Positions 13,265 to 31,763 of a DNA stretch of 32,000 nt are shown piece after piece. The notes beneath the pieces were generated by a model. That model saw nothing but the letters and a program-made list of their open reading frames with translations, was not told the origin of the DNA and did no database searches. The first letter of the stretch is position 1. Every line of letters starts with the position of its first letter. A program made the translations under genes and the position numbers. The DNA is from Methylorubrum extorquens. Lineage in GTDB: Bacteria > Pseudomonadota > Alphaproteobacteria > Rhizobiales > Beijerinckiaceae. The stretch covers positions 1,500,001 through 1,532,000 of the forward strand of contig LT962688.1 in the NCBI GenBank assembly GCA_900234795.1, written 5' to 3'.

Positions 13265-13353
13265 TGTCCTGCCGAACCTGTCATGCCGAACCCATCAAAT
13301 CGGCCAAGCGATAGGATGGGCGGGATCGAGTTGAGGCTTGTCGTAGTACCCAC

Positions 13354-14001: not shown

Positions 14002-14021
14002 TCCGTTGTTACTCCCCCGTG

Positions 14022-15284: not shown

Positions 15285-15526
15285 TTATCTCTCCAGCCAC
15301 GGTGTTCGCGGAAGATCTTGTTTGTAGTGTTGACCTTCCTTCTACGAGTTGGCACAAGAGCACGCGTTCGGGGTTCGAGAAACGCGAAAGCGATGTGGCC
15401 TCGTCACCATGTCGCTTCAAAGCGACCGGAAATCGTGTGCCAGCCGAACGCTCCACTGGTCAAGGCGATCGTATCAGTCACGAGCCAGTTCCGTCCGCGG
15501 TCGTTGCTGCACCGCAATAAAATGGG

Positions 15527-15988
15527 ATGCTGATGGTCAAGGCGCCGAGAGTGCTGGTCGATGCGCGCGAAACCGACCTCTTGAGAGGCTTCCATGCCCT
15601 CGCTGTCACAGAGTGCCTGCTACGTGCCGGCATGAAGGCAGATTGGCACTTCCTGACAGAAGGGGATCCGGACGAACAGCTAGCGATCGCCTCGCTGCGC
15701 TTCGATTGGTCGATCGCTGTCTCCTCCTGGGATGGGCGCACGGCGACCGAAGACTTCGATCTGTACGTCATCGTCGGAGATGCCTTCCCGGCCGATCCGA
15801 CCACCGAGGCCGCATTGCAGGCCGCTCGCCTCACCCTGGCAGGCCTGACCTCGGCCTCGGAGCTGCCCGTGCGGCCTGCCGTCCTGTGCATGTTGGGGCA
15901 CGACACCGCCGCTTTGGCCGGCATGGCAGCGACCCTACTTCGGGCGGAACACATAACGTCGGGCTCCTCTCTCGGATGGAGACGGTAA
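15527..15988 (+). CDS. hypothetical protein, partner of the downstream glycosyltransferase
   Basis: 153-aa ORF. Its TAA stop overlaps the ATG of the next gene (TAATG at 15986-15990). It shows weak collinear similarity to the 144-aa product of 28351..28785, which holds the same position upstream of the paralogous GT. Confidence 0.55.
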   Translation: MLMVKAPRVLVDARETDLLRGFHALAVTECLLRAGMKADWHFLTEGDPDEQLAIASLRFDWSIAVSSWDGRTATEDFDLYVIVGDAFPADPTTEAALQAARLTLAGLTSASELPVRPAVLCMLGHDTAALAGMAATLLRAEHITSGSSLGWRR

Positions 15989-17214
15989 TGTCGCAGCGTG
16001 CTCGGCTCCGCCTTCTCGTCGTGGGCATGTCCAACAGTCCGCATCTGCATCGCTGGGTGAGCATGGTCGCCCGGCCGGATGTGGCAATCGTCGTGTTTCC
16101 CTCGCTGAGCTTCCCGGTGAACCTGCCGGAAGGCTTTCGGCTGATCGATCTAGCAGATGTGACTGAGGATCTGGAGCCGGGCATCTTCCTTCTGACACAC
16201 ACCGAGAGCCGCAGGGAGGAGGACACGCTTGAGGATCGAGATTGGGGCTATGTGCCGTTCTCGCACAGCTTCGTTCCCCCTCACATGCTCTCGACCCCGG
16301 CTGCACTCCTGCGCTGCATCGACCGGCTTCGCCCTCATCTGCTGCACGGGATGGAGACGCAGATCGCCGGCTATCTCTGTGCGGAAGCTGCGCGGCGAGC
16401 GGCCAACTTCCCGACTTGGATCCAATCGACCTGGGGCAGCGACCTGTTCCTCTTCCGCAAGCTGGAGGGTCATCCGGAGCGATTGAAAAAGGTGTTCGGG
16501 CGGGTTCAGATACATCTGGCCGATTGTGCGCGAGACCGGCCGATCGCGCGGCAGTTCGGTTATCAGGGACCGGACATGCCGATCGTTCCCTCGTCGGGCG
16601 GTGTGAGTATCGATGACATGCGCCGCTTCGGTGGGACCCCACCGTCGAAACGGACGCGGATCCTCGTCAAAGGATATCACAACTGGGCGGGACGAGCTTT
16701 GCTCGGCCTCTCGGCGCTCACCCTGGTGCGGGATGAACTCAAAGGCTTCGGCATCGACATCCTTGCCGCCGGACCACGCGTGAGGGCGTGGGCTCAGCAG
16801 ATGAGCGCGACGCTCGGAATGGAGGTGCGGGCCCTCGATTACATGGCCGATCACACGGATGCGCTCCGTCGCTTGGGCGAGGCGCGCTTAGTGATCGGGC
16901 TCGGCATTTCGGACGGCCTCTCCACCACGGTGCTCGAAGCGATGTCGGTTGGAACCTTTCCGGTCCAGAGTTGCACCAGTTGCTGCGACGAATGGATCCA
17001 GGATGGGCAGACTGGTCTCATCGTGCCGCCGTCGGATACGCGCGCGATCGCGAATGCCATCGTCAGGGCCGCGACCGACGACGAGCTCGTCGACACCGCC
17101 GCCCGCAGGAACCTCGAAACGGTCAGCCGGCGCTGGAGCACTCCAGCTAACCGTGTGATGGCTTGGCGGATCTACGACCAAGCCTTAGGCAAAACGGCTG
17201 CCTCCAGGGTTTGA
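15988..17214 (+). CDS. GT-B fold (GT4-like) glycosyltransferase
   Basis: ATG 15988 (MSQRARLRLLVVGMSNSPHLHRW...), 408 aa. The C-terminal domain reads RILVKGYHNWAGR...ARLVIGLGISDGLSTTVLEAMSVGTFPVQSCTSCCDEWIQDGQTGLIVPPSD...ATDDELV, an EX7E-like region. The track extension back to 15349 is Arg-rich and overlaps the 153-aa gene. Confidence 0.85.
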   Translation: MSQRARLRLLVVGMSNSPHLHRWVSMVARPDVAIVVFPSLSFPVNLPEGFRLIDLADVTEDLEPGIFLLTHTESRREEDTLEDRDWGYVPFSHSFVPPHMLSTPAALLRCIDRLRPHLLHGMETQIAGYLCAEAARRAANFPTWIQSTWGSDLFLFRKLEGHPERLKKVFGRVQIHLADCARDRPIARQFGYQGPDMPIVPSSGGVSIDDMRRFGGTPPSKRTRILVKGYHNWAGRALLGLSALTLVRDELKGFGIDILAAGPRVRAWAQQMSATLGMEVRALDYMADHTDALRRLGEARLVIGLGISDGLSTTVLEAMSVGTFPVQSCTSCCDEWIQDGQTGLIVPPSDTRAIANAIVRAATDDELVDTAARRNLETVSRRWSTPANRVMAWRIYDQALGKTAASRV

Positions 17215-17247
17215 TTGCCGCCCACCCGATTGAGCAAGGTACCTATT

Positions 17248-17271
17248 ACGCCGGAGCCATGGCTCCGGCGT
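17248..17271. terminator. perfect 24-nt palindrome between convergent glycosyltransferase genes (putative bidirectional terminator)
   Basis: The sequence is ACGCCGGAGCC-AT-GGCTCCGGCGT. It lies in the 66-nt gap between the stops at 17214 and 17281. Confidence 0.55.
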
Positions 17272-17280
17272 GATCCGCGA

Positions 17281-20200
17281 TCAGCCTTCCACGAGTGCTT
17301 GAACCCGGTCGATCATGCGCTCGATGTCGAAATGCTCGCGGGCGAAGGCCTGGGCCGCTTGGCGGGCTCGGGCAGTCCGTTCGGGATTGTCGAGATACGA
17401 GAGAACGGCGTCTGCGAGCGCCTGCGGATCCGATCCGGCGACGGACACGCCGGTCTCCCCCGGACGTATCGTTTCATCGATGGCGCCGACCCGCCGCGAC
17501 ACCACGGGCACGCCGCTGGCCTGGGCTTCGATGATCGCGTTCGGCATCCCCTCGCTGAAGGAGGTGAGCAGGAAGACGTCGAGCGCTGGCAAGGCCGCAT
17601 AGGCATCCTCAAGCGCTCCCGTGAACCGGAAGGCGCCACTCAGCCCGAGTTCGGCGGCGGCATTCTTCATTGCCGGGAGCAGCGGTCCGTCGCCGATGAC
17701 GGCAAAGACGGTGTCGGGTCTGCGCGCTGCGACGGACGCAGCCACCTGCACCCAGAGCAGCGGCGCCTTCGGTAAAGCGATGCGCATCACGACACCGACG
17801 ACGGGCCGGTCGGCATCGATGGAAAGGGTTTGGCGCGCCCGCGCACGGGCAGCAGGGTCGAGGGCCGAGTGGAAGCTCCCGATCTCGAACCCGCTCGGCA
17901 CGATGCTTGCGCGGCCCTCGAGATCGACTCCCAGCCAATCGGCGTAATCGTCGACACAGGTCTGAGCCATGCCGGTCAGATGGACTTCGGGGCGGGAAAG
18001 AAGCTGCCGATAACCTTCCCTGTACCAGTGACAGGCATCCGCATCGTCGATGAAGTCCGGCGGCCGCATATTGTAGGTTCCCAGCAGAATCCGGGGAACG
18101 CCGGTCAGCACGGCGGCGAGGCCGCCGACGAGGTTAGGGACTTCGAGATGAGCGTAGAGCACCGCGGGCTTGCGTGCCCGAAACAGCTCGATCAGCCACT
18201 GGTGATAGGACGAGGCTCCTATCCATTTGTAGGGTGCCTCAACCCTCTGTACGTCATCGTAAATGAGTAGCTCTTCGCGGGCATGACCTGTCTCCGACAG
18301 GTAGAAGCTCGTGGCGCGCTCCTGCGCGCAATCGAACAGCAGCAGTTCAACCGGCCGCGACCCGAGCCGCTTGCGCAGACGGGCGAACAGCATCGCGACC
18401 AATCGTTCGGCACCGCCGCGCGCCAGGGTCCAACTGAGGATGAAGATGGGCCCGCCCGGACGGGGCGTGGGTGGTGGTGTGGAGCGCACAACGCGCTCCA
18501 GCACCTTCACTGCCGCCTCCGTATGGGGAGCGCCGGGTACGACATCCATCGCTGCGACGAAGTCGGCGAGGCTCGACAGCGCCTCGCTCAGCGCCGAGTC
18601 GGAACTGAGCGCAGATGCCGATCGCCGCAGAATCACTGCATCTCCGGCGGGAAGCGTGGTGACCGGTTGCACCTCCAGCAACGCGCGAGCGAGGTCGGCA
18701 TTGCCGGGCGCCTCGGCCAAGCCGGCTCGAACGACCTCTGCCGCCTCCGCAAGCCGCCCCGTCCGGCGCAGAAGCCTGAAGTATGACAATGCCCCCTCTA
18801 CCGGATTCAGGGCGATGGTACGCTGCACCAAGTCGGAGACACGCTGCAGCATATCCAGCGATGCGTTGCCGTCGAGCAGGGCCTGAGAAGCGAGGCACGC
18901 CAGGGCCGGTGTGGTGATGCCGGTGCGGACGGCGCGTTCCGCTTCGACCCGGGCCCAATTCCGTTCCCCCATCTCGATCAGCAGGCTCAGGGCTTGGAGC
19001 CGCAGTTCCTCGTTATCGGGATAATGCGCGCGGGCATGGAAGATCGTTTGCAGCGCCTTGTCGAGTGCCCCCCGTCCCTGATGCAGATGCATGCACCGGA
19101 TGAAGGCGTAGGGGGACGGCTCCGATGTCTCGAGGAGCCGCTCGAGCCAGTCGAGCGCCCCGGCAGAGTCACCGGCCTGCTGCGCGAACTGGCTGAGCGC
19201 ATCGAGAGCCTCCGGGTCGTTCGGCTCGTCGGCCAGCCGCAACCCGTAGAGATCTTTCGCCAGTAGGATTTGGCCTTCCGCACCGAGCCGCCGGGCGGTC
19301 GCGTGCAGCGCTGCCACGTCGCGGGTCGTTCGGTAGGCCTGGGTTGCCTGATCGGCCTCGCCGGCGAAGGCAATCGCCCGGCGGCTCTCCGCCAGTCGCT
19401 CGAGCTTCGAAACCTGGCGGGAATGGGCCGGGTCGGCTTCAAGGGCGCTGCACAGGGCATCGATCCGTTCCAGGATCGAGTTCCGGCCAAGTGCGAACAG
19501 CGCATGGGTCCAATGAATGTCCGAGAGGGCACCACTGATACCGAGGACTGCGTGTCGCCGGGCGAGCCAGATCGCCACCAGTGCGTCTTCGGCCGGCCCC
19601 GCGGTCGCTTCGAATCGGAAACCGCCGAGGAAGACCGTACGGTGTATCATCAGGGCCGAGGTGGCCACCGGACAATCCGCGATGATCTCCGGGTAGGTCG
19701 TCTCCCCGAGGCTGCTTCCCGGCCCAGCCGGCTCCGTGCCTCCGCCTCCGACAGAATAGCCGGTATATGAGACGGTGCGGCCCGCCTCCGCCATCGCATC
19801 AAGCTGGCGTAAGATCTTATCTGACAAAAAGGTGTCGCGAGGGTCGAGGAAGGCCAGATAGTGGCCGCGCGCCTGCTCCATTCCCGTGTCGAACGGATCC
19901 GCGCCTGCTTCCGACGGAATGCGCCGTACGCGCGGGTCACCCGCGATCGCCGCCTCCAGATCGGCTGGAAGCGGGGCATCGGTGACGAGGATCACCTCGA
20001 GATTGGTGTGGCTCTGCTGCAGGATCGAGCGCAGCGCCCGTACCGGATCGGCGCCCGCCGTGCGGACCGAACGATCGCAGGGAAGAATGACCGAGACCAG
20101 GGTCTTCGCGGCTGACCAAAGCGCAGCCTGCTCATGGCCGTAGGCCGCCACCTCCGCGATTCCGGCAGATCCGTAGTAGGTAGCATTCTCCACAAAGAAG

Positions 20201-21060
20201 CGCTTCTCGCTGCCCTCCATCTGAACCCGCTGCGTCTCAGAGCGTCCGTCCATCAGGCGCTGAAAGAGCCTGTTCCGCTCAATCAGCGATCCGGGCTTGT
20301 GAGAATCCTGGCCGGGATGGGTTCTGTAATGAACGTGTGCTTCCTTCTGTAGAAAGAACTCGTGTTCTTGGGAGATCCTGAGCCAGAGATCATAGTCCTG
20401 CGTGTACCGGAGGGATTCGTCAAATGGATAAAATTCTTTGATGATCCATGCAGGAATATAGAGCGTGCACCCGTTGACAAGGCCGCGATGAAGCGGCAGG
20501 AGCGGCTTTTCTGTAAGCAATCCAAGCTCAATATCGGTGGTATAAAAAAGTTTTCCTTCCGGATCGATCAGGCCGTAATCTGTAAAAAGAATCGCATTTG
20601 GCCTATTTAGGCGCCGATGAAAGGAGACTTGTGACTCGGTTTTATGAGGGAGGTATATGTCGTCGTGGCTAAGCCAAGTGAATACGTCGCCGGTCATGTG
20701 GCGAATCGCCGTGTTCAGCGCGCCAGACACGCCGCGATTTTCTTGGCTAAAATATCGGATCCGATCGGAGTACTTTAGCGCAATCCGCTCCGTCTCTCCG
20801 CCGTCGTTGGACCCGTCGTTGACGACAATAATCTCTATGTTTCCGTAAGTTTGCGCTAGCGCACTACGAAGTGCCAGCTCGAAATATCGGCCACCATTCA
20901 TGACCGGCATCACGATCGTGACCTTCGGATTGGGCATCACAGCTGGCTCGGACTCGCCCGCTGATCCGAACAGCCGACCACTGTCTCGATGGGTCAACGC
21001 TCCCTTGTGCAAGCTGTCGTCTGTCTTGACAGTCCGATCCTGCAGGATTGCTTCGCCCAT
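17281..21060 (-). CDS. 1259-aa multi-domain glycosyltransferase: GT2 + second GT2-like + TPR-like helical array + GT4 (GT-B)
   Basis: GT2-1 (aa ~46-255) has VTIVMPVMNGGRYF...IIVVNDGSNDGGETE...ENRGVSGALNTAI...TWLSHDDIY. GT2-2 (aa ~321-520) has VSVILPC...LEVILVTDAP...YLAFLDPRDTF. The helical repeat region (aa ~570-800) includes NDPEALDALSQFAQQAGDSAGALDWLERLLE and HYPDNEELRLQALSLLIEMGE. The GT4 domain (aa ~870-1259) has FAVIGDGPL...FLLTSFSEGMPNAIIEAQASGVPVVSRRVGAIDETIRPGETG. Confidence 0.9.
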   Translation of the reverse strand: MGEAILQDRTVKTDDSLHKGALTHRDSGRLFGSAGESEPAVMPNPKVTIVMPVMNGGRYFELALRSALAQTYGNIEIIVVNDGSNDGGETERIALKYSDRIRYFSQENRGVSGALNTAIRHMTGDVFTWLSHDDIYLPHKTESQVSFHRRLNRPNAILFTDYGLIDPEGKLFYTTDIELGLLTEKPLLPLHRGLVNGCTLYIPAWIIKEFYPFDESLRYTQDYDLWLRISQEHEFFLQKEAHVHYRTHPGQDSHKPGSLIERNRLFQRLMDGRSETQRVQMEGSEKRFFVENATYYGSAGIAEVAAYGHEQAALWSAAKTLVSVILPCDRSVRTAGADPVRALRSILQQSHTNLEVILVTDAPLPADLEAAIAGDPRVRRIPSEAGADPFDTGMEQARGHYLAFLDPRDTFLSDKILRQLDAMAEAGRTVSYTGYSVGGGGTEPAGPGSSLGETTYPEIIADCPVATSALMIHRTVFLGGFRFEATAGPAEDALVAIWLARRHAVLGISGALSDIHWTHALFALGRNSILERIDALCSALEADPAHSRQVSKLERLAESRRAIAFAGEADQATQAYRTTRDVAALHATARRLGAEGQILLAKDLYGLRLADEPNDPEALDALSQFAQQAGDSAGALDWLERLLETSEPSPYAFIRCMHLHQGRGALDKALQTIFHARAHYPDNEELRLQALSLLIEMGERNWARVEAERAVRTGITTPALACLASQALLDGNASLDMLQRVSDLVQRTIALNPVEGALSYFRLLRRTGRLAEAAEVVRAGLAEAPGNADLARALLEVQPVTTLPAGDAVILRRSASALSSDSALSEALSSLADFVAAMDVVPGAPHTEAAVKVLERVVRSTPPPTPRPGGPIFILSWTLARGGAERLVAMLFARLRKRLGSRPVELLLFDCAQERATSFYLSETGHAREELLIYDDVQRVEAPYKWIGASSYHQWLIELFRARKPAVLYAHLEVPNLVGGLAAVLTGVPRILLGTYNMRPPDFIDDADACHWYREGYRQLLSRPEVHLTGMAQTCVDDYADWLGVDLEGRASIVPSGFEIGSFHSALDPAARARARQTLSIDADRPVVGVVMRIALPKAPLLWVQVAASVAARRPDTVFAVIGDGPLLPAMKNAAAELGLSGAFRFTGALEDAYAALPALDVFLLTSFSEGMPNAIIEAQASGVPVVSRRVGAIDETIRPGETGVSVAGSDPQALADAVLSYLDNPERTARARQAAQAFAREHFDIERMIDRVQALVEG

Positions 21061-21424
21061 CTTAAGCTTCCATTTGGTTCGTACAATCGATTACGACGAG
21101 GGTATCGCTGATAACGGACGGCTGACCCATGCGGCTCAGCTCCGGTCCGTGACAGGTCTTGCCGCATCGTATCGTTTGATGCCGCCAGGACGACACGAGA
21201 GCATATCGACTGGAGGACTCCGAGGCACGCAGCACCGCCGTGTCACAAGGCGCTCGTCTTTACAACGGTTCTGCGACCGGCACGCGGTGCTTCGCTCCCT
21301 CGTCGTCCGTGCGAAGCAGGGCTGTTTTGAAAGCTCGACCGTGCCGAGGCAAGGTCTTTTTGTGACGGATCCTCGCACGGCCCTCGCAACAATCCTGGTG
21401 GGGAGGCGGGCTCGCCGGTCGGGA

Positions 21425-22393
21425 TCAGCGGGTGACAAGCTTGCAAGCGTAGCTTGCCTGCAGGCCGTCGACGAGGTCGATGCGCGGCGCCCAGCCGAGC
21501 GCGGCACGGGCTGCTGCGTTGTTGCAGACGAGATGATCGGGCAGCTGACCATTCCCCTTGTCCGCCGACCGGATCCGGATGGAGCGGACCGGCTCGGCGC
21601 GCTGCACGGCGGCGATTGCGGCCATCACGAGTTGCTCGACCGATTGTCCGTGACCCGAGCTGATGTTCAAGGGCCGGCCAGCCGGCAGGTCCGGCCGGAT
21701 GGCCGCGGCGAGTAGCGCATCCACCACATCTTGAACATGAATATAGTCACGGACTGGGTGCAGGGCCTGAAGTTCGATCTCGTCCTTAGCGCGTAGCTGA
21801 TGCAGGATGGTGGTGACCACCGTTTCGGTGCTCTGGTTGGGCCCATAGATATTGGAGAGCCGGAGCGACACGGCCCACGCGCCGGTCTCGACATAGGCCA
21901 TGACCAGGGCTTCCGCCGCGATTTTCGAGGCAGCATAGATGCTTCGCCCGCGCAGCGGATGGTGCTCTTCGATAGCAGTCCGCGTCTGCGTCCCGTAGAC
22001 AGCGGCGGTGCTGGCGAAGATAAGGCGTGCGACCGCATGCGTCGCACAGGCTGTCAGAACGTTGCAGGTGCCGGTGATGTTCGCGTCTGTAAACGATCGG
22101 AACGAGCCGCCGCCGCCTCCGTTTCCGGCGAGGTGGAAGACAATCTGTGCACCTGCTGCTGCCTGAACGACGGCGGCCTCGTCCAGCAAATCACCGCGCA
22201 GGATGACGACGCGGCTGGCGCATTCCGGCTCGCGGGCCTGGAAGTGTGGCCAGCCTCCGGATTGCGGATTGCGCAGGAGGGCTGCGACCTCGGCTCCGAG
22301 GGCGAGCAGAGATCGCACCAGGTGTTGCCCCAGAAATCCGGAGGCCCCTGTGACAAGAACCCGAACACCGGCGAGCGGCTGCAGCGTAGCCAT
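21425..22393 (-). CDS. extended-SDR NAD-dependent sugar epimerase/dehydratase family protein
   Basis: The start is ATG 22393 (MATLQPLAGVRVLVTGASGFLGQHL), giving 322 aa. Motifs: IVFHLAG, FASTAAVYG, YAASKIAAE (YxxxK), RLSNIYGPNQ. The track extension to 22597 overlaps the upstream gene. Confidence 0.85.
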   Translation of the reverse strand: MATLQPLAGVRVLVTGASGFLGQHLVRSLLALGAEVAALLRNPQSGGWPHFQAREPECASRVVILRGDLLDEAAVVQAAAGAQIVFHLAGNGGGGGSFRSFTDANITGTCNVLTACATHAVARLIFASTAAVYGTQTRTAIEEHHPLRGRSIYAASKIAAEALVMAYVETGAWAVSLRLSNIYGPNQSTETVVTTILHQLRAKDEIELQALHPVRDYIHVQDVVDALLAAAIRPDLPAGRPLNISSGHGQSVEQLVMAAIAAVQRAEPVRSIRIRSADKGNGQLPDHLVCNNAAARAALGWAPRIDLVDGLQASYACKLVTR

Positions 22394-22401
22394 GTCGATC
22401 C

Positions 22402-24447
22402 TCAAGCCGCTGCGTTGATCCAACTGCCGATCCGGGGTGGGTTGAACTGCCATTTCAGGAGCAATGGCGATAGATTGGTCTGGCTGCGCAAGGCCCCGCC
22501 GGCTTCGGCGGCCGGCCAGGACCAACCGATCCGTTCCGTACCGCACACGATCGGGCTGCCGTCTGCAAGGCGGGCGTAGAGGTCGAGAAGGCCACAATCC
22601 CCCATCGACTCATCGATCACGAGTCGCTCGCTCCGGCGCAACAGAATGCCGCCGGTCCGTGGTTCCGGATCGATCAGGCTGTGCAGATTGAACTGGGCGG
22701 CTTTATGATTCCGAAGGACCGCGCCGAATTCGTCGAGTTCCGACCAGAGCCCCAGCGCGAGGTCAGCTTCAGGCGTCGATTGAGATGCCCGCAGAAGGCG
22801 GCGCAAGGCTGCGCCTTCGATGCCATCGCCGGCCTCAAGCAGGAGGATCGCTTCAGCCTGTGATTGCTCGAAGGCACGGTTGATGGCGGCCGCCTCTCCG
22901 ATCGCCGCGGAGAGCATTGTCGCATGAGGATGGAAGCTTCGCAGGCGCTGCGGCAGATCCTCGAACTCCCCGTGTGCCTCGATTAGGATTTTCACGGCAA
23001 GTCCGTCCGACCCCGGCGCGCGCAAGGTGGCCAAGCTCCGTTCGAGCGCTCCGCGATCACGCCCAGCGCGCAGGATGATCTCGATGTCGTTCCTCGCAGG
23101 CGGCGGCGCAACAGAGCGCCAGATCCGGGCAGGGGCATGACTCAACGGATGGGCTGCGAGAGCCCGCTCAAGACGGCCATGATCCGTACGGCCCGAACCT
23201 GCCGGGGCCGATCCGATCACGTCCGCGAAGAAGTCGTTGCGAGGCGGCGGCCAGCCGCCCTCTAGGATGGTTTTGCGCAAATGTCCGGATCGCGCCTCGT
23301 AATCGCCGAGCAGAAGCTCCAGCTTGGCTGCGGCATCGGCCAGATCGTCGGGATCGATGATCGGCGGAGCGATCCCAGCATGGCGCGCTTCGAGAAAGGC
23401 TGCGGCACCCGCCTGTTTCGACAGGAGGATCGGTGCCCCCGACATGGTTGCCTCGACCGCGACGTAGTTGAACGCATCGGAACGGGACGGGATCACGAGC
23501 ACCGAACGGCCGCGAAAGGCGCGCGACCATAACTCTTCGTGGCTGATCTCGCCAAGATACTCGGCAGGGACCTGCCGCTCGCGGGCGAGGTCGAGCACCG
23601 TCTCGGACCAGCGCGGTCCTGATGTGGCCCAGTGGTTGTCCGGACCACAGAGATAACAGTTCCGATAGAGGGAGCGGGGAACCTGGGAGGCAATTTCGAT
23701 GAAGAGGTCCGGTCCCTTGTTCCTGTCAAGGCGTCCGACGAACCAGAGATCGGGCGGGCCTTCCCCTGGCGGAAGGGGCGCCGGGAGCGGTACCGTATCA
23801 AGGGCGTCATGCATGTCGACGATCGCCGATGGCTTCGCTTGGATGTTCTCGGCGGCATGGAGATCCGAGATCGTGTAGCTCACATCCGAGCCCGCGATGC
23901 AGCGCCGCTCCATGTCCTCGATCCGCTGCACGACCGCCTCGGGGACTTCCGACGCATAGGCGTTGCGGTTGCTGACGCTCAGCCAGCCGAGCATACCCAG
24001 CGAGATCGTTCCGACCCCGATGCCGAACGCGGCGAAGATCGGACGGATGAGATGCGCCACGGGGAAGAAGGAGGGCACTTCAACAACGTCGATAAACTGG
24101 CCCTGAAGTGGCACGGCTATCTGGCACACGATCAAGGCATAGGAGCGCTCCTCAACGCCTTCGATCTTCAGCGCGCCGAGGAGATCCCACGGATAGAGAA
24201 AGCGATCGAAGCCGTAGGGATGCGCATTGGCAGGCAGGCCGGAGCGCACTTCGCCCGAGAGATCGCGCCCCCGCGACGGATAGAGGAAGGTCCAATCCGG
24301 ATGCCGCTCGACCACGCGCCGATAGAATGTCTGCCCGCCGCCGAGCGCCGAGTAGAAGTCGAAATCGCAGATCAGGGCGCGGATCGGTCGACGCCCGGCT
24401 GGCAATTCAGTTGCGGCCGGCATCATCATCATCGGAACAGCCGCCAT
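22402..24447 (-). CDS. two-domain glycosyltransferase: N-terminal GT4-like (GT-B) + C-terminal degenerate GT2-like domain
   Basis: The GT-B part reads WFVGRLDRNKGPDLFIE...VLVIPSRSDAFNYVAVEATMSGAPILLSKQAGAAAF. The C-terminal part reads DIEIILRAGRDRGALERSLATL...AAAINRAFEQSQAEAILLLEAGDGI. The likely true start is ATG 24432, which forms an ATGA overlap with the upstream stop at 24429-24431. Confidence 0.8.
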   Translation of the reverse strand: MAAVPMMMMPAATELPAGRRPIRALICDFDFYSALGGGQTFYRRVVERHPDWTFLYPSRGRDLSGEVRSGLPANAHPYGFDRFLYPWDLLGALKIEGVEERSYALIVCQIAVPLQGQFIDVVEVPSFFPVAHLIRPIFAAFGIGVGTISLGMLGWLSVSNRNAYASEVPEAVVQRIEDMERRCIAGSDVSYTISDLHAAENIQAKPSAIVDMHDALDTVPLPAPLPPGEGPPDLWFVGRLDRNKGPDLFIEIASQVPRSLYRNCYLCGPDNHWATSGPRWSETVLDLARERQVPAEYLGEISHEELWSRAFRGRSVLVIPSRSDAFNYVAVEATMSGAPILLSKQAGAAAFLEARHAGIAPPIIDPDDLADAAAKLELLLGDYEARSGHLRKTILEGGWPPPRNDFFADVIGSAPAGSGRTDHGRLERALAAHPLSHAPARIWRSVAPPPARNDIEIILRAGRDRGALERSLATLRAPGSDGLAVKILIEAHGEFEDLPQRLRSFHPHATMLSAAIGEAAAINRAFEQSQAEAILLLEAGDGIEGAALRRLLRASQSTPEADLALGLWSELDEFGAVLRNHKAAQFNLHSLIDPEPRTGGILLRRSERLVIDESMGDCGLLDLYARLADGSPIVCGTERIGWSWPAAEAGGALRSQTNLSPLLLKWQFNPPRIGSWINAAA

Positions 24448-26039
24448 TTTTTCTTCGCTGGCTGCAAGGGAGCTGCCACCTGCGGCTGCGGCTCTGCATA
24501 ATCCGACGCAGTAGGGGCGTCCCAGGTGAGGTAGGCGCCCGGATAGAAGCTCGGCGCCGCCTCGGTCCGCCGCAGGCGACTATATTCTGCCGCCCATCGT
24601 GTCCGGACGGCTGCGAGTTCTGACCGCACAATCACCGCCGTCGCATTCATGGGCAGGATCCAGCTGTAAGGACGACCATCTAAGCGCAGGCCGAGGCCGC
24701 AAGCTGCGCCAGCGAGGATCGGCAAACCTTGCGCCATGGCAGCTGAGACGCGGAAATCGAACACTTCCGGCGCCGGGCTCGGGAACCAGACAAGGTGAGG
24801 TCGCAGGACACAGACCAGCTTATTAAGGTCGAGGCAGTTGGCAGGGCCAAGGTTCCGCAGACCGGCAGGCGCGCGGGCCATGGGCGTCCCGCCGAGACTA
24901 TAGAAACGCACCGCGGCCTGGTCGTCGCGGCAGGCGGCGATGGTCTCCGCTACGAGTCGCTTTTCCGGCTCCAAGGCTCCGTTCCAAATCAGAACACGCA
25001 ACTCCTCGTCGGGATCCAGACGAGCCGGATGCACACGGAACAGGTTTGGCTTTCCGGGCTCGGGATCGAGGCCGATCGTGATTGGCCGCCCCGGAAACCA
25101 AGCGCGTAGCGCGGCTAGCATGATATCGCTGCAGGCGATGGTACGGGCGGCCTGTTGCACAAGCGCCCGGAACTCCCCGATTGCAGCCGCGTCCATGGAG
25201 CTTGGCGCTGGAGGAGCTGCGAGAGGCGTGAGATCGAAGGCGCAGCCGAGGGCCGCGATGACCGCTCGCGCGGCAGGTTTGAATTCGGTCGCGAGCAGGT
25301 CGATCCGGTCGATCCGTAGGGGAAGCGCGGCCGATGCCAAATCCTCGACAGGCAACCGCGTTGTCACAGACCCTGCCGTAGCGGGAGCGGCCGAACTGAT
25401 GACGAGTTGTCCATCCTCGAGCCAGCCGAACAGGATGTTCACACGGCGGCGGACAGTCTCCTGCAGATGGGTAGCGAACTGTTCCGCGAAACGGTTCCGC
25501 TCCTCCAGCAGCAGAAGCAGGGTCGGTCGGTCGGGCTGCAAACCCTCCGCCAGACGCTCAAGGCTGTAGCGCTCGGCCATGGCAAGGGCAGTGGCGAGAG
25601 GCCCGAGCGGCAGGCCAACCGGAATATTGCGCAACGTTTCCGGGGAGATCTCGACGATCTTCTCGGCGTCGAAACCGTAATGTTCGAACTGGGCCTCGTC
25701 GATGACGAGATGGCGCGTCTCCTGCCCGGGATGGGAGCAGACTACGAGGTGAACCGATGTGCTTCCCGATCGGCGGACGAGCCGACTGCCGGGTCCGAGC
25801 ACGCTTCCCTCCGGCAGGCGGGCGCAATCGGTTTCAGTCCGGAACGCGTCGTCGCGGAAGATCGACCGCATGACGTCGATATCGGTGATGTAATGGCGCT
25901 GGTCGCCGAAGACGAACCAGATCTGATGCTCGCCAGGAATCTGGACACGCAGGCCATCGAAGTCAGGCGCGTCGCCGGAAAGATCAGTTTGCGGCGACAT
26001 GGAGCCGGCTCGACATACCGAGTGATTGGAGGAAGTCAC
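24429..26039 (-). CDS. hypothetical protein with unknown N-terminal region and a GT-B-like C-terminal half
   Basis: 536-aa ORF (alternative start ATG 26000). The C-terminal part, RVLIWNG...LVWFPSPAPEVFDFRVSAAMAQGLPILAGAACGLG, looks like the nucleotide-sugar-binding half of a GT-B enzyme. The first ~300 aa match no family I recognise. It overlaps both neighbours, consistent with coupling. Confidence 0.65.
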   Translation of the reverse strand: MTSSNHSVCRAGSMSPQTDLSGDAPDFDGLRVQIPGEHQIWFVFGDQRHYITDIDVMRSIFRDDAFRTETDCARLPEGSVLGPGSRLVRRSGSTSVHLVVCSHPGQETRHLVIDEAQFEHYGFDAEKIVEISPETLRNIPVGLPLGPLATALAMAERYSLERLAEGLQPDRPTLLLLLEERNRFAEQFATHLQETVRRRVNILFGWLEDGQLVISSAAPATAGSVTTRLPVEDLASAALPLRIDRIDLLATEFKPAARAVIAALGCAFDLTPLAAPPAPSSMDAAAIGEFRALVQQAARTIACSDIMLAALRAWFPGRPITIGLDPEPGKPNLFRVHPARLDPDEELRVLIWNGALEPEKRLVAETIAACRDDQAAVRFYSLGGTPMARAPAGLRNLGPANCLDLNKLVCVLRPHLVWFPSPAPEVFDFRVSAAMAQGLPILAGAACGLGLRLDGRPYSWILPMNATAVIVRSELAAVRTRWAAEYSRLRRTEAAPSFYPGAYLTWDAPTASDYAEPQPQVAAPLQPAKKKWRLFR

Positions 26040-27306
26040 CGCGCGTCTCGATGGCGCGGGTCAAGGCAGCGGTGAGGGCGTCGCGGCGTACGATCAAGCC
26101 GGATAAGGCGCCGAGCGGATCCGCATCCGGCCAAGCCTCCTGTGGAATGGCGATGCCGTCGAGAGCCGGATCGCGCAAGAGGCGACTGAACGCTGGCCAG
26201 AAGGCGGAGACGGGGACGTCCTGCCGGAGGAAGGCGAGGATCGGGGCATCGAACTCAGCAAGAGCACGGGTGACCAGATCCTGCGGATCGATCGGTGCGC
26301 CGAGGATGGTGCTGCCCGATAAAGTTTCCGGCAGCGGATCGGCGACGAGCAGGGATTGCTGATCGAGCGAGGCGTCCACTAAGAGGAAGGCGAGGTCCAG
26401 ACCGCTGCTGGCGAGTTCGGCCTTCGCGACCGATGCCGCACGCGGACTGCGGCTGCTCAGGACGATGCCAGCCCGAAGCGTTCGTGCCCGGCGGCGCACC
26501 AGTGCGTCGGCACCCTGTTTGGCGCTGTCATACCCTGTGACCTTAAGGAAGTCGCAGGCGCGAAGGAGGAAGGCCAACTCCGAGCCCGCATGCTCGCGCG
26601 CCTTTTCCTCCGGCACTCGCTCGAGCATCTCCATCCACAGCAGGCTCGCCTCCTCGATATGCCGACGTCCGCGCGACCCCTGTCCCTCATGCACGCGGTG
26701 CCGGACCAGAGCGCCGGGCACGTGGACGAAGGGGTAATGCAGCGCAAGCCGCCACCACAGCTCGTAGTCCTGGGTTGTCGGCAAACCGATATCGAAGCCG
26801 CCATGGCGCTCCAGTAGGGCACGGTCCAGCAGGACGGTGCAGCCGTTGATACGACCTTCGAGGATGGCCCATAGCGGTTGATCGCTGCGATAGCCCGATC
26901 CGGTCTCGATCTCGGCCAGAACAGTGCCATCCTCGCCCATAGTGGCATAGTCGCCAAAGGCGACACACGGCCCTGGCTGGGCGTTGAGAACCTTCATCTG
27001 CACCTCGACCTTGCGCGGATCGTACAGGTCGTCGTGGCTGAGCCAAGTCAGATATCGGCCGCTCATCGCGGCAATGCCGGTATTGAGAGCTGCGCCGACG
27101 CCGCCGTTCTCCCTATGCAGATAGCGGACACGGGTGCCGAAGGAGCGGCAGACCCGTTCGGTATGTCCATTGTCCTCCGAGCCGTCGTCGATGACGAGCA
27201 CCTCGATTGCCGACCACGTTTGCGCCAGCGCGCTCTCGATGGCCTGGGTCAGAAAGGGCCCGCCATTGTAGACGGGGATGATGATCGTGACGGTTTCAGG
27301 GCACAT
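25984..27306 (-). CDS. GT2 family glycosyltransferase with a C-terminal extension
   Basis: 440-aa ORF. Motifs: VTIIIPVYNGGPFLTQAIESALAQTW, IEVLVIDDGSEDNGHTE, ENGGVGAALNTGI, TWLSHDDLY, QDYELWWRL. It is clearly paralogous to GT2-1 of the 1259-aa protein. Confidence 0.9.
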   Translation of the reverse strand: MCPETVTIIIPVYNGGPFLTQAIESALAQTWSAIEVLVIDDGSEDNGHTERVCRSFGTRVRYLHRENGGVGAALNTGIAAMSGRYLTWLSHDDLYDPRKVEVQMKVLNAQPGPCVAFGDYATMGEDGTVLAEIETGSGYRSDQPLWAILEGRINGCTVLLDRALLERHGGFDIGLPTTQDYELWWRLALHYPFVHVPGALVRHRVHEGQGSRGRRHIEEASLLWMEMLERVPEEKAREHAGSELAFLLRACDFLKVTGYDSAKQGADALVRRRARTLRAGIVLSSRSPRAASVAKAELASSGLDLAFLLVDASLDQQSLLVADPLPETLSGSTILGAPIDPQDLVTRALAEFDAPILAFLRQDVPVSAFWPAFSRLLRDPALDGIAIPQEAWPDADPLGALSGLIVRRDALTAALTRAIETRGDFLQSLGMSSRLHVAAN

Positions 27307-27309
27307 GGC

Positions 27310-28354
27310 TCAGACGGTCGGCACGGCGTTGCGGGAGACATGGCCGAGCATGTGGCGATAGATCGATCGCGCTGCCGCACCGTTACGGCCTGCATCCCAC
27401 CGCTCCTCCACACGTGTCCGATTGCGCGTGGCAGCCGCATCGACCAGCCTGTCGTCGGTCGCGGCCTGCACAAGGGCTTCGGCAAGGCCATTGACGTCAT
27501 GCGGATCGACGATGATGCCGTCGCGGCCGCTCTGCACCCATTCGCAGGCACAGGAGGTCATGGCCTTGATCGGGAAGGCACCGTAGCACATTGCTTCGAG
27601 AAGGGTTGTCCCGATCCCGTCCGAAATCCCGATGCCGATGACGATGCGAGCTTCCGCAATCCGGGCGAGCGCTTCCTCGTGGCTCGGGTCATAGAGGACA
27701 GGCGCGATGTCGAGTCTGTCCGCTTCCGCCATCGCTTGCATCATCTCCAGCATCGCTGCGGAGCAGAACTGCACGCGGACGCGATAACCGCGCAGGGCGG
27801 GCGCGGCGAGGTGTAGGGCGGATAGAATATGCATCCCACGACCTGACCAGCCATGATAGCCCTTCACCAGGATCGTATTGCGCCGTGATGGGGGTGTGAG
27901 CTGGTCGAGCGGCGGAACGGTGCTGAAATCGATCCCGCCGGAGGCCGGCAACGGGTCGAAGGCTTGCCCCTTCAGGCCGAGCCGGCGCGCCAGCGGCACG
28001 TCGCGCCGGCACTCTGCCAGATAGCCGTCGATGCTGCGCATCAGTTCGAGCAAGATTGGACGGTGCGCGGGCAAGCGGTGATAGAGATAGATGTCGCTTC
28101 CCCAGTTCGAGAGGAGCCACGTGAGTGATTTGGAAGACACCTACCTCACCGGGACCGAGAGCCTCGACGTCGCTGCGGCTAGTGACGGGCGACCAAGGTT
28201 GCAGTTCGGATGCTGGTTTTCCATCGTGGACAGGGAAGACGACGAAGCGCGCAAGGTCGCCGCGCAGCATGTTAAGCCAGCGTGCCAAGTGCACGCTGTT
28301 CTGCATCCCGACGATCAAGACAGTCGGGCGGGTTCCTGCCGCGCGCTCGGTCAT
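27310..28354 (-). pseudogene. disrupted paralogue of the 15988..17214 GT4-like glycosyltransferase (internal deletion plus frameshift)
   Basis: The N-terminal piece runs from ATG 28354 (MTERAAGTRPTVLIVGMQNSVHLARWLNML...GVFQITHV). The C-terminal piece is in another frame, from GTG 28140, with a TAG immediately upstream (SSKSLTWLLSNWGSDIYLY...ILVKGYHGWSGR...ARIVIGIGISDGIGTTLLEAMCYGAFPIKAMTSCACEWVQSGRDGIIVDPHD). About 70 residues present in the intact paralogue are missing between the two pieces. Confidence 0.7.
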
Positions 28355-28785
28355 CGCATGCGCTCGATAAGATGCTGGGCGAACAGAGCCGGATCGTGTG
28401 CGGCACGCAGGAGTGCTAACTGCTCGCTCGTTGCCGACCTGGGCAGAAATTGAAGTGCGAGAAGGAGCGGAATCCCGAACTGTTTCGCTTCCGCCACATG
28501 CAGACCGTCCGGACTGTCCAAGCGAACGGCAGCGTACAGCTTGGCGCCCTCGAAGACCGAGGCGTCGCCAGGTTCGTCGGCGCAGGACGAAATGCCGACA
28601 TCAAGACCTGTTTCCCAGCGCAGGAGATCGATTGCCCCATGCACAGCCAAGCTGTTCGCGTCTACGAAGTGAATTTCGGTATCGAGCAGTTCGGAACGGC
28701 AATGATAAAGGGCGGATATGACAAGTAGGGAGCGTCCTTGTTTATCTTCCGCCCCATCAATAATGACCCGACTTTTTCTTTTCAT
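28351..28785 (-). CDS. hypothetical protein, first gene of the long minus-strand glycosyltransferase operon
   Basis: 144-aa ORF. It has an ATGA stop/start overlap with the next gene at 28351-28354. It shows weak collinear similarity to the 153-aa product of 15527..15988. Confidence 0.55.
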   Translation of the reverse strand: MKRKSRVIIDGAEDKQGRSLLVISALYHCRSELLDTEIHFVDANSLAVHGAIDLLRWETGLDVGISSCADEPGDASVFEGAKLYAAVRLDSPDGLHVAEAKQFGIPLLLALQFLPRSATSEQLALLRAAHDPALFAQHLIERMR

Positions 28786-29306
28786 GCGCTGAAACTATTT
28801 TTCGTCGGGCGGAAGGACAATTGTTTATGTTTGCATCTAACAGGAAGGTTTAGGCTTGGCAAGTCAACTAGCCCCTGTGGCTTCCGTGAGCCGCAGTTCT
28901 GCCGATTGGTTGCAGCATCGGCGCAAGCATGGGGCGTTGAAACAATGGGCGGACCCATCTTCGGTGAGGTGCCGCAGAGCCGATTTCCTGATCAATGCCA
29001 GGCCTTAGGAGGTGGCCTCGCTGTTGCCCAAGCTCTCGCTGAAAATTCTAGTGCAAGAGCTAGCTGGATCTTCTGCGCATGACAGTTGAAATCCAAGAGC
29101 CTCAGCACTACAGATGGAGATATGCCTAACAAGCCATACGTGTCAGAACGATTGTGCTCATAATAAGCATATCTCGCTAAGCTGATCAAGTATAGACTAT
29201 GTCTATAATTTTACTCGCTCGTCCAGAACTGTGTACTGTTTAAGCCACGGCCTGATGCGAAAAGTTTGACTTAAATTTCAACCACGTATTGACAACAACA
29301 TATGAA
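28786..29306. promoter_or_regulatory. AT-rich non-coding spacer upstream of the glycosyltransferase operon
   Basis: There is no convincing ORF. Hand count gives 20/60 G+C in 29161-29220, against about 41/60 in housekeeping DNA. It contains the palindrome TATAGAC-tat-GTCTATA (29191-29207) and a 9-bp inverted repeat, GAGATATGC (29117-29125) / GCATATCTC (29167-29175). Confidence 0.4.
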
Positions 29307-29383
29307 TGGCGCGCCCGAAAGGATTCGAACCTCTGACCCCCAGATTCGTAGTCTGGTGCTCTATCCAGCTGAGCTACGGGCGC
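29307..29383 (-). tRNA. tRNA-Arg (anticodon ACG)
   Basis: The reverse complement folds as GCGCCCG-TA-GCTC-AGCTGGATA-GAGC-A-CCAGA-CTACGAA-TCTGG-GGGTC-AGAGG-TTCGAAT-CCTTT-CGGGCGC-G-CCA. It is 77 nt with an encoded CCA. Confidence 0.9.
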
Positions 29384-29429
29384 CTTTTTTAACGTCTCAA
29401 TGCCCGTGTAGGGCGTTCCTCTTCTTGTT

Positions 29430-29476
29430 TGGTCGGGGTAGCAGGATTTGAACCTGCGGCCCCCACGCCCCGAACG
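29430..29476 (-). repeat. orphan 3' half of a tRNA-Pro gene (anticodon loop to CCA), att-like direct repeat of 31764..31810
   Basis: 43 of 47 positions are identical to the 3' part of the intact tRNA-Pro, in the same orientation. No matching 5' acceptor strand (CGGGGTA) or D-arm follows it. Confidence 0.75.
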
Positions 29477-29804
29477 GGGGACGTGCGCCGACGCCGCTTC
29501 TACTAGGCGGGTTTTCCCTTGGGAGCAACCCCCTTCGTCGTCTTTCTCCGTGGTTCGTCATCGTCCGCGATCCGTGGCCCGCGAGCCCCAACCTGTGGCC
29601 GGGAATGTGCCGTGAACGCCGTATCCCGTTCCAGATCACGCCCCCGTTGCCGGGCCGGCTTGCCCCCAGGCTGGGCCGGCGCGAGAATCCCTGCATGCCC
29701 GGCGACAGCTACCCGCCCGAGACCGCCTGCGTCCTCGAAGGGATGACCCCACCCCGGCTACCGCCCGGTGCTGCGCTCTCAGGCGGGGCTCGACGACAGT
29801 ATTG

Positions 29805-30401
29805 TTATGTCGCACTCAGGCCGAGTAGCGCATCAATCAATGGGGAAGCCGTTTCGGCAACTGACGCCCCCATCGTTCGGAGCGTCAGGTCGGGCGTCTC
29901 TGGCGCTTCGTACGGAGCAGAGACACCGGTGAAATTAGGAATTTTGCCGGCACGCGCCCGGTCATAGAGGCCTTTGGGGTCACGCGCTTCGCAGATCGAG
30001 AGCGGCGTGTCGACGAAGACTTCGAGGAAGGGAATGTCTCCCGCTATCGTCCGCGCCGCCGCGCGTTCAGCGCGGAAGGGCGATATCAGTGAGACGATCA
30101 CCACAAGCCCCGTCTCCGCCATCAGCCGCGCGGCTTCGGCGGCGCGGCGGATGTTCTCCACCCGGTCGGCTGCCGTGAAGCCGAGGTCGCGGCTTAGGCC
30201 CTGACGCAGGTTGTCGCCATCAAGCACCATGGTGCAGCGGCTGATTTCGGTCAGCGCACGATCGGTTGCGTCGGCGATGGTCGATTTGCCGGCTCCGGAC
30301 AGTCCGGTTAGCCAAGCGATGGCTGGCCGCTGCCCCATCCGGGTCCAGCGTCGCTCCCGTGGCTGAAAAGGCTGCCGAAATACGTCAGTGCCGCTGTTCA
30401 T
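29805..30401 (-). CDS. cysC: adenylyl-sulfate (APS) kinase
   Basis: From ATG 30401 the product reads MNSGTDVFRQPFQPRERRWTRMGQRPAIAWLTGLSGAGKSTIA (P-loop). Further motifs: LDGDNLRQGLSRDLGFT, DRVENIRR, VSLISPFR, FVDTPLSICEARDPKGLY, AGKIPNFTGVSAPYEAP. Length 198 aa. It is monofunctional, with no CysN fusion. Confidence 0.9.
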   Translation of the reverse strand: MNSGTDVFRQPFQPRERRWTRMGQRPAIAWLTGLSGAGKSTIADATDRALTEISRCTMVLDGDNLRQGLSRDLGFTAADRVENIRRAAEAARLMAETGLVVIVSLISPFRAERAAARTIAGDIPFLEVFVDTPLSICEARDPKGLYDRARAGKIPNFTGVSAPYEAPETPDLTLRTMGASVAETASPLIDALLGLSAT

Positions 30402-30562
30402 AGCCGCTCGTAGTCCTCCTAAGCTACCATCGCAACTAGCGCGGATATTTCGCAACCCTCGTGACATCAGCGCCCGCATATTGGCGCAACAGCTTCACTC
30501 CAACGCCCAGGCAGCCCGCAGAGCGTCGATCGCCTCCTGCTTCATGTCTGCGTACCCGCTGT

Positions 30563-30977
30563 TGACCTGACCGGTATTTTGGACCGGGCCAGATGGGAGG
30601 CGACTGCATGGTAGTGGCCATGGGTAGCCGGAAGGTCAGGTCCGGGAAGCTGACAGGCGCGGGCGGCCGGTAGCCCAACGACGAATGCAGCCGGACACGG
30701 TTGTAGGTGTTCTGCCATAGGCCAATCACGACCTGTGCTTCTCTCAGCGAGTAGTAGATTTCCTGGAGTAGGCACTCGTCACGTAGCTTTGCTCGGAGAC
30801 ATCCGCCTCCTTGCACGCGACAGCGACGCTCTTGCCTTGCGCCGTCTGTACCTCGATCTGGCGCAGCATCAGCACGACCTTCTCCGCGCTCGGCCTCTGT
30901 CCTCGCTTCATTCCCAACTCCTCTGATCCAGGCTGATCCTCTCAATCGGTCCGGCCCAAAGCCAGCCGGTCAGGTCA
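30563..30977 (-). mobile_element. 415-bp internally deleted IS3-family element (both ends kept; orfA N-terminus joined to orfB C-terminus)
   Basis: Terminal inverted repeats share 12 perfect terminal bases: TGACCTGACCGGTATTTTGGACCGG (30563, plus) versus TGACCTGACCGGCTGGCTTTGGGCCGG (from 30977, minus). On the minus strand, ATG 30911 gives MKRGQRPSAEKVVLMLRQIEVQTAQGKSVAVACKEADVSEQSY. After a junction near 30782-30790, a different frame gives KLRDECLLQEIYYSLREAQVVIGLWQNTYNRVRLHSSLGYRPPAP. Confidence 0.75.
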
Positions 30978-31023
30978 AGGGCGGACCGCACTAGTCTCAG
31001 GCTCACCTCGCTCGGAAACTGAT

Positions 31024-31644: not shown

Positions 31645-31763
31645 CGGCCTCGAAATCCCTGGCCGCAACGTGTGGCCGGAAGGTCAGACTGGCGAATCCT
31701 TGCACCAGCCTGTGACCGAACCTGCGGCCGGATTCTCGGGAAGACGCATTCCCTAGGGAGGAA

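Follow-up and report, generated by a model that had tools for sequence, protein, structure and literature searches.

A horizontally acquired, mosaic glycan island without membrane-machinery genes in Methylorubrum extorquens

The 32,000-nucleotide (nt) stretch of Methylorubrum extorquens analyzed here (the window; assembly GCA_900234795.1, contig LT962688.1, positions 1,500,001 to 1,532,000) carries an island of glycosyltransferase (GT) and sugar-nucleotide genes lying between trmFO and a tRNA-Arg gene (Table 1). The island has two parts, a core referred to here as module A and a 9.5-kb insert referred to as module B; the genes u144, u523, u195, u151, u215 and u95 are named after the length of their products in amino acids (aa). 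It is horizontally acquired, strain-variable and mosaic, and is missing from some sister genomes. The 1259-aa fusion protein encoded in module B is an exact match to an NCBI protein of M. extorquens that bears the name ‘Glycosyl transferase (modular protein)’.

The borders of the island follow from two sister genomes with an empty site (L011 and L014), in which the alignment covers window positions 1–5765 and resumes directly at the regions of tRNA-Arg and tRNA-Pro (29306–29476, then 31764–32000). The G+C content is approximately 62% in the island as against 70–73% in the left flank; it is 68–73% over the opening 5.7 kb of the window and approximately 55–66% in the remainder. In another genome (L098, 20547–21829), a related island ends by a tRNA-Arg copy that is 89% identical to window positions 29304–29479, and this end also lies beside a DUF6538 gene and transposases. 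This recurrence beside tRNA-Arg suggests integration targeted to that gene. A plasmid origin was considered and dropped, as megablast searches against PLSDB gave short matches alone (fnl genes, the IS3 fragment and a tRNA).

The minus-strand operon of module A runs in the order u144, GT4, GT2, u523, GT4_676 and a gene for a short-chain dehydrogenase/reductase (SDR), and is convergent with the genes for an NTP-transferase and a 4,6-dehydratase; past the dehydratase gene the module continues into a GST-like gene and then the fnl-type genes. All of the minus-strand junctions from which the initial annotation had argued for translational coupling were found in the sequence. These are an ATGA overlap at 28351–28354, a 3-nt gap at 27307–27309 (reading TGA-GCC-ATG), a 17-nt overlap at 25984–26000 with an ATG at 26000, an ATG run overlapping a TGA at 24429–24432, an 8-nt gap at 22394–22401 and a 364-nt gap at 21061–21424. 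Promoter and terminator scans of 11800–29400 returned no more matches than expected from shuffling and were uninformative on operon structure.

The second gene of this operon is a real pseudogene. Its 1045 nt are spread over two frames (27689–28354 and 27310–28140), with the Pfam match to the C-terminal half of GT4 falling in the latter, whereas intact orthologues encode 421–430 aa. Compared with the intact 421-aa orthologue in L098, the copy in the window matches residues 1–77 and 153–416, and residues 78–152 are gone; DNA alignments place a 221-bp deletion at approximately 28120–28130. The broken sequence is identical in three independent Illumina assemblies of the same strain (L001, L003 and L004), which rules out a sequencing artefact. 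Because a conserved GT4 has been inactivated, the product of module A in this strain is probably truncated, altered or absent.

The remaining genes of the operon are intact. The 440-aa GT2, 77% identical to its orthologue in L098, has a C-terminal extension of approximately 200 aa. In GT4_676, the Rossmann domain is flanked by conserved N-terminal (residues 1–150) and C-terminal (residues 429–640) domains without an assigned role, and a 404-aa protein of L099 aligns with residues 17–149 and 429–639 only. A borderline hydrophobic stretch in the conserved N-terminal domain (residues ∼99–150, Kyte-Doolittle maximum 1.68) is probably a buried or membrane-grazing segment and not a transmembrane (TM) helix. 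The product of u523 had no sequence match in Pfam, NCBIfam or PDB, and its family (15 homologues) is restricted to Methylobacteriaceae. The top Foldseek matches in PDB for its AlphaFold2 model (mean predicted local distance difference test score, pLDDT, 75) were all GT-B/GT4 enzymes with E-values of ∼1e-5, including sucrose-phosphate synthase, GlgM, MshA, BshA and WaaG, and on this modeled fold u523 is an additional candidate glycosyltransferase. Its N-terminal domain was compared by hhalign with Wzt_C as a possible carbohydrate-binding module and no similarity appeared, a weak negative given very shallow profiles. The initial annotation had counted at least six GT modules plus an epimerase. 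The Pfam GT modules and the SDR are indeed there; given the GT-B fold of u523 and the broken GT4, that count misses one candidate transferase of the operon and includes one that no longer works.

At the head of the operon, u144 belongs to a family of 14 homologues, all of them in Methylobacteriaceae and without a Pfam match, and precedes the GT4 gene in L098, L099 and L102–L104 as well. It is 38% identical to residues 478–607 of a 626-aa Azospirillum TPR/sulfotransferase-like protein, to which the equivalent sequence is fused at the C-terminus. We rejected the idea that u144 is a cut-down remnant of this protein, since free-standing orthologues of 126–144 aa lead the operon in five other genomes. 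A PF20706 ‘GT4-conflict’ match in the island overlaps an ordinary Glycos_transf_1 match, and a role in anti-phage defence or conflict was set aside after PADLOC returned zero matches among ten island proteins.

Module B is an insertion into module A, as the positions equivalent to window positions 21447 and 11896 lie only ∼90 nt apart in L098, L102 and L104. It is collinear with a metagenome contig (L017) at 76–81% nt identity, with proteins at 70–84% aa identity, and most of its components also occur in an Azospirillum cluster (L015) that is likewise membrane-free. The initial annotation had read the coupled operon as continuing into the 1259-aa fusion across the 364-nt gap. This reading did not survive, as the fusion belongs to the separately acquired module B, and the gap is close to one edge of the insertion instead of being a plain spacer within an operon.

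The 1259-aa fusion combines a GT2 domain (residues 45–290), a second GT2 domain (∼318–520) that is clear in an alignment of 22 homologues, tetratricopeptide repeats (TPR; ∼616–796) and a GT4 domain (∼950–1255). It is 53% identical to a 962-aa GT2-TPR-GT4 protein of Azospirillum. The best NCBIfam match of its GT4 domain is TviE (E = 4e-43). Elsewhere in module B, u151 and GT4_408 are kept in L017 at 71 and 84% identity, respectively, and GT4_408 is 42% identical to the C-terminal portion of the pseudogene. An hhalign comparison of u144 with u151 (E = 5e-4, probability 32%) is suggestive only of paralogy between these two sequences. The 304-aa SDR shares 34% identity with the epimerase of the Azospirillum cluster.

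Module B also encodes u195, a P-loop protein whose loop, GVGHSGTS, lacks the Walker lysine and which has an RD...S motif. Its sole Pfam match is a weak one to Sulfotransfer_3 (E = 0.005). An exhaustive search followed by clustering at 50% yielded 350 representatives of its family, and 34 sampled members had no significant Pfam match (E ≤ 0.001) for the u195 domain; 21 of these 34 carried an N-terminal GT2 domain. The u195 domain is often a C-terminal fusion to GT2, GT32 or GT25 transferases. Foldseek matches of its AlphaFold2 model (pLDDT 92) mix sulfotransferases with NMP-type (small-molecule) kinases, and the fold search does not separate the two. We consider u195 a candidate glycan-modifying enzyme; its family resembles a so far undescribed glycan-modifying domain of sulfotransferase/kinase fold, and glycan sulfation is plausible. 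Downstream of u195 lie u95 and u215, 84 and 75% identical to their L017 counterparts, and the three genes loosely resemble the enzyme/coiled-coil/membrane-anchor layout of WbdD-type terminators.

The fnl-type, nucleotidyltransferase, 4,6-dehydratase and SDR genes together point to the supply of 2-acetamido-2,6-dideoxy-L-hexose and NDP-6-deoxyhexose donors. Judged from sequence, the fnl-type genes imply a pathway to a UDP-2-acetamido-2,6-dideoxy-L-hexose of the L-FucNAc type, the exact sugar not being readable. The same three enzyme types as in the FnlA/FnlB/FnlC pathway to UDP-L-FucNAc are adjacent in the island, but their order is B-A-C, FnlA scores below the equivalog cut-off, a GST-like gene is conserved alongside, and the sugar may be L-FucNAc, L-QuiNAc, L-RhaNAc or L-PneNAc. 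This GST-like gene, an odd constant partner for a glycan locus, occupies the same position in L012, L013, L102, L103 and L104. The LegB-like 4,6-dehydratase reaches 415 bits with NCBIfam TIGR04180 (cut-off 475), and the nucleotidyltransferase is GDP-type-like (Pfam NTP_transferase, E = 2e-38); the pair adjoins module A in L098 and L102–L104. The 322-aa SDR reaches 190 bits with the LegB-like NCBIfam model, under its cut-off.

The initial annotation had noted by eye that no product at this locus is a multi-span membrane protein and that genes for initiation, flipping, polymerization, export and ligation are missing, and both statements hold. In a six-frame Kyte-Doolittle scan that took in every stop-to-stop open reading frame (ORF) of 60 aa or longer, no ORF had more than one separate hydrophobic span, and the sole strong hydrophobic span in the 32 kb is the C-terminal anchor of u215. 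Pfam and NCBIfam searches of all plausible genes in the window returned no WecA/WbaP, Wzx/Wzy, Wzm/Wzt, Wzz, Wza or WaaL. There were zero ABC2_membrane or ABC_tran matches in the window, and for a Wzx/Wzy-type locus neither a multi-span ORF nor a matching Pfam family was found there. The TviE equivalog model stayed under its cut-off, with no vex-like genes in the window, and no island protein matched a known protein glycosyltransferase (Maf, GT41/HMW1C or BAHT) in Pfam or NCBIfam. An export locus immediately outside the window, the finding that the initial annotation had named as decisive against it, was sought in 10 kb on each side. Both flanks are housekeeping, with no wzm/wzt seen: look-ups with the terminal genes gave an anti-sigma factor, UvrA, chemoreceptors and an RND pump on the left, and a sigma-70-family factor, CarD, ferredoxin, GreA, phosphoribosyl pyrophosphate (PRPP) synthase and XseA on the right. 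Among 51 related GT gene neighborhoods (±10 kb), 8 were without any ORF of at least four TM spans, so that the lack of membrane genes is a minority state but not a unique one.

Module A occurs in at least six Methylobacteriaceae genomes and at more than one chromosomal site. It recurs in L098, L102, L103 and L104, and a reduced form in M. crusticola (L099) is accompanied by the same fnl-type genes. The flanks vary by genome (an MFS transporter and a transposase; a primase-polymerase and a phasin; a chemoreceptor; tRNA-Arg with DUF6538), and the glycan modules of these related loci contain zero membrane-protein genes. Since the module is found in this state in so many genomes and at different sites, it must use host functions. 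Of the alternatives in the initial annotation, the one that places the genes for the membrane steps elsewhere is thus the better supported. On wzm/wzt and on flagellin glycosylation in Methylobacterium, a literature search yielded nothing relevant.

In species-representative genomes, the closest tandem-GT2 relatives of the fusion lie in ABC-transporter loci, at 37–44% identity in L018 and L021. In L018, an ABC-2 permease and a Wzt bearing a Wzt_C domain are encoded directly upstream of the gene and a TylF O-methyltransferase downstream of it, and in L021 Wzm and Wzt(Wzt_C) are encoded ∼4 kb upstream. A tandem-GT2-TPR relative in L101 lies ∼5–6 kb from Wzm and Wzt(Wzt_C) and ∼2.5 kb from a gene for a protein combining Sulfotransfer_2 and Wzt_C. 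This protein (9941–11116, minus strand, ∼1 kb from Wzm/Wzt) is possibly a sulfating chain terminator of an ABC-transporter O-antigen locus. Another tandem-GT2-TPR relative (L100) is accompanied by fnl-type genes, GT4s and a methyltransferase.

Several further features of the window lie outside the island. On its left are genes for an extracytoplasmic function (ECF) sigma factor, a trypsin/PDZ protease, an RTX-repeat protein and TrmFO. The protease gene (1312–2285, plus strand) falls into three frames (1312–1716, 1709–2197 and 2172–2285), and the fragments are 87–100% identical (the first two 99–100%) to intact 324-aa orthologues in L011 and L013; its two frameshifts are either real or assembly indels in a region not covered by the short-read assemblies that we fetched. 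On the right, positions 29430–29476, adjoining tRNA-Arg, repeat part of the 3′ half of tRNA-Pro (31764–31810) over 47 nt at 91% identity. The repeat pair encloses a 2.3-kb islet (29477–31763) that is not in L011 or L014, and the repeat resembles an att-type remnant of an integrated element. An Rfam scan of the window found nothing besides the two tRNAs.

Table 1. Features of the window and their positions (position 1 is the first letter of the window).
Feature	Position	Strand	Remarks
RTX-type secreted protein gene	2327-3949		Outside island; kept in genomes without the island
WecB/FnlC-type 2-epimerase	5752-6888	-	229 bits, above cut-off 210
Glycan island	5766-29305	both	Between trmFO and tRNA-Arg(ACG) 3′ end
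FnlA-like dehydratase/epimerase	7015-8049	-	530 bits; equivalog cut-off 730
FnlB-like reductase	8049-8924	-	RmlD-like models only, under their cut-off
GST-like gene	8929-9690	-	Between 4,6-dehydratase and fnl genes
NDP-hexose 4,6-dehydratase (LegB-like, 324 aa) and sugar-1-phosphate nucleotidyltransferase (238 aa)	10195-11896	+	
IS3-family (ISMra1-like) transposase remnant	11888-12348		At module B edge; 84% nt identity to Methylobacterium radiotolerans ISMra1 genes
Module B	11897-21446	both	Inserted between epimerase gene and NTP-transferase gene of module A
SDR epimerase/reductase, 304 aa	12350-13264	-	Pfam Epimerase, E = 2e-35
u215, 215 aa, tail-anchored	13354-14001	-	C-terminal span, hydropathy peak 2.19
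u95, coiled-coil-like, 95 aa	14022-14309	-	Kept in L017
u195	14697-15284	-	P-loop sulfotransferase/kinase-fold protein
u151	15533-15988	+	1-nt overlap with GT4_408
GT4_408	15988-17214	+	GT4, paralogue of broken GT4
1259-aa fusion, GT2-GT2-TPR-GT4	17281-21060	-	Pfam/NCBIfam
SDR nucleotide-sugar epimerase/dehydratase, 322 aa	21425-22393	-	Pfam Epimerase, E = 8e-48; last module A operon gene
GT4_676, 676 aa	22402-24432	-	Pfam Glycos_transf_1, E = 1e-13; GT4 C-terminal Rossmann domain ∼220-380
u523, 523 aa	24429-26000	-	N-terminal beta-rich domain ∼15-130; predicted divergent GT-B fold ∼155-480
GT2, 440 aa	25984-27306	-	Pfam Glycos_transf_2, E = 3e-27
GT4 pseudogene	27310-28354	-	221-bp internal deletion and frameshift
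u144, 144 aa	28351-28785	-	First operon gene; cytoplasmic protein, function not assigned
tRNA-Arg(ACG)	29307-29383	-	3′ end is right island border
APS kinase gene	29805-30479		In 29477-31763 islet, just outside glycan island
rve_3 integrase-core fragment	30436-30945		In 29477-31763 islet, alongside a 206-aa ORF
tRNA-Pro(CGG)	31764-31840		Right end of window

To explain a locus of this kind, we favor, at even confidence, a soluble-enzyme module that builds a 6-deoxy-sugar-rich, possibly sulfated, lipid-linked glycan and relies on unlinked host genes for initiation and export. The sequence establishes which genes the island has, where it ends, how it is pieced together, the pseudogene and the lack of membrane genes; acceptor, export route, polymerization and sulfation are proposed. 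In outline, we infer that, on the cytoplasmic side of the inner membrane, soluble or peripheral glycosyltransferases would assemble a heteroglycan rich in 6-deoxy sugars on a lipid-linked acceptor. The fusion would contribute its tandem GT2 domains as a chain-extending pair and its TPR region as a scaffold for partner enzymes and for membrane association, and the P-loop protein u195 may modify the glycan, possibly by sulfation. Priming, export of the ABC-transporter type and final attachment would fall to unlinked host genes. In Vi capsule synthesis, both membrane association and the binding of the GT4 polymerase TviE depend on the cytoplasmic TPR domain of TviD (PMC8760489); given this precedent, a TPR region beside a TviE-like GT4 is to be expected in polysaccharide machinery and is no pointer to a protein acceptor.

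A number of points weigh against this interpretation. No transporter, initiating transferase or ligase is shown in the window and its 10-kb flanks, and the match of the fusion GT4 to TviE is far under the family cut-off (148 vs 733 bits). Tandem-GT2 relatives also adjoin Wzx/Wzy-like proteins, and large multi-span ORFs alone were seen at 28 of the 51 related loci. The lipopolysaccharide (LPS) of M. extorquens PA1 and AM1 is rough, without O-chain and with a large, 6-deoxy-sugar-rich core (PMC10052234), so that O-antigen export by a host route is not demonstrated in this species. The broken GT4, in turn, raises the possibility that this strain makes nothing.

Known systems offer partial parallels. 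ABC-transporter-dependent O-antigen and glycan loci with multidomain polymerizing glycosyltransferases are represented by the E. coli O9a WbdA/WbdD type and the Geobacillus WsaE type. As in these, GT modules in the island are fused in one polypeptide, Wzy and Wzx are absent, and a candidate modifying or terminating enzyme is present; the closest tandem-GT2 relatives, moreover, adjoin Wzm, Wzt(Wzt_C) and a methyltransferase. In contrast to such loci, the island and the 10 kb around it are without wzm/wzt or a priming enzyme, as is the core module in five other genomes. A second precedent is the lipooligosaccharide (LOS) loci of Campylobacter and Neisseria and the wboA/wboB island of Brucella, which hold soluble glycosyltransferases and sugar-nucleotide genes and leave membrane functions to housekeeping or unlinked genes. 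The present island shares this restriction to soluble transferases and sugar-nucleotide genes, but is larger, with 7–8 GT modules including a three-module fusion with TPR, and has the lineage-restricted u144/u151, the putative GT-B u523 and the P-loop candidate modifying enzyme. With the Vi machinery (TviE/TviD; PMC8760489) it has in common a TviE-like GT4 with a cytoplasmic TPR region alongside, and the TPR protein of Azospirillum resembles TviD in bearing a modifying-enzyme-like domain. It differs in that one polypeptide of the island contains both the TPR and three GT modules, and in having neither VexA-E nor uronic-acid genes of the TviB/TviC type.

Of the other explanations, the main rival is LOS-type assembly, in which sugars would be added singly onto lipid A-core at the cytoplasmic face and the housekeeping MsbA would flip the product, making genes of its own for initiation, flipping, polymerization or ligation unnecessary. 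The rough-type LPS of PA1 and AM1 with its large 6-deoxy-sugar-rich core agrees with this, as does the presence of module A at differing chromosomal sites, which fits a universal acceptor; the content of soluble transferases and sugar-nucleotide genes only is a feature of LOS outer-core loci, necessary for such a locus and not specific to it. Waa-type (GT8/GT9) enzymes were not found, however, the nearest tandem-GT2 relatives are in Wzm/Wzt loci, and a three-module glycosyltransferase with TPR and a TviE-like GT4 resembles polymer machinery. Furthermore, the L-FucNAc-type sugars predicted from the fnl genes have not been reported in the LOS of PA1 and AM1, strains that may or may not carry the island, and on balance we regard LOS-type assembly as improbable. 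Cytoplasmic protein glycosylation, with the TPR array recruiting flagellin or a secreted surface protein before export, appears very improbable. The initial annotation had proposed that a protein acceptor would fit the TPR array, and an island that has such an array, is without membrane steps and lies in the same window as an RTX-type secreted protein gene might seem to invite this view. The proposal finds no support: there are no flagellar, pilin or Maf/GT41-type genes in the window, the flanks or six related loci, the RTX gene is outside the island and kept where the island is absent, and module A has no TPR. In addition, the tandem-GT2-TPR relative in L101 belongs to a Wzm/Wzt locus, and cytoplasmic TPRs act as a scaffold in Vi capsule synthesis.

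The Vi parallel could be taken further, to a polymer that would grow on a dedicated non-undecaprenyl glycolipid anchor and leave the cell through a capsule-type ABC system whose genes lie elsewhere. TviE is the best named match of the fusion GT4 domain and the TPR scaffold parallels the Vi system, but the score is far below cut-off, neither a VexE-like acyltransferase nor Vex/Kps genes were found, and no uronic-acid pathway genes were identified; we give this explanation very little credence. A different possibility is that the island in this strain is decaying cargo, a non-functional remnant that yields no finished product. This is unlikely, yet it carries appreciable weight, as the deletion and frameshift in a conserved GT4 are verified in independent assemblies, an IS3 remnant lies inside the island, and sister genomes do without the island with no obvious consequence. 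Against decay, all other genes are intact and tight coupling is kept, module B retains its high protein identity to the diverged contig L017, and the intact paralogue GT4_408 might substitute for the broken GT4. Returning to a soluble module served by host genes, a more elaborate form would make modules A and B mobile plug-in cassettes without membrane machinery of their own. Here, u144 and u151 as adaptors, the tail-anchored protein and the TPR scaffold would dock glycosyltransferases onto a generic host acceptor and export route, and the u195-like family would add sulfate or phosphate to the glycan, which might serve to signal chain termination. We consider this elaboration speculative and rather improbable.

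The island draws its enzymes from known families, and there are precedents for GT-only accessory loci. What is new lies in the detail: a recurrent membrane-free, mobile and mosaic design, the lineage-restricted u144/u151 and u523, and a GT2-associated P-loop family without a Pfam model. The present value of the finding is chiefly an annotation-level clarification, and it flags three uncharacterized families, the divergent putative GT-B u523, the GT4 partners u144/u151 and the GT2-associated sulfotransferase/kinase-fold u195. Given the rough LPS of PA1 and AM1, the glycan made by island-positive strains would clarify whether a hidden O-chain or capsule capacity exists in the species. If the plug-in cassette reading is true, surface-glycan diversity in the Methylobacteriaceae could spread as small soluble-enzyme cassettes that use conserved host export, which would bear on strain-specific recognition of these abundant leaf colonizers by phages and plants.

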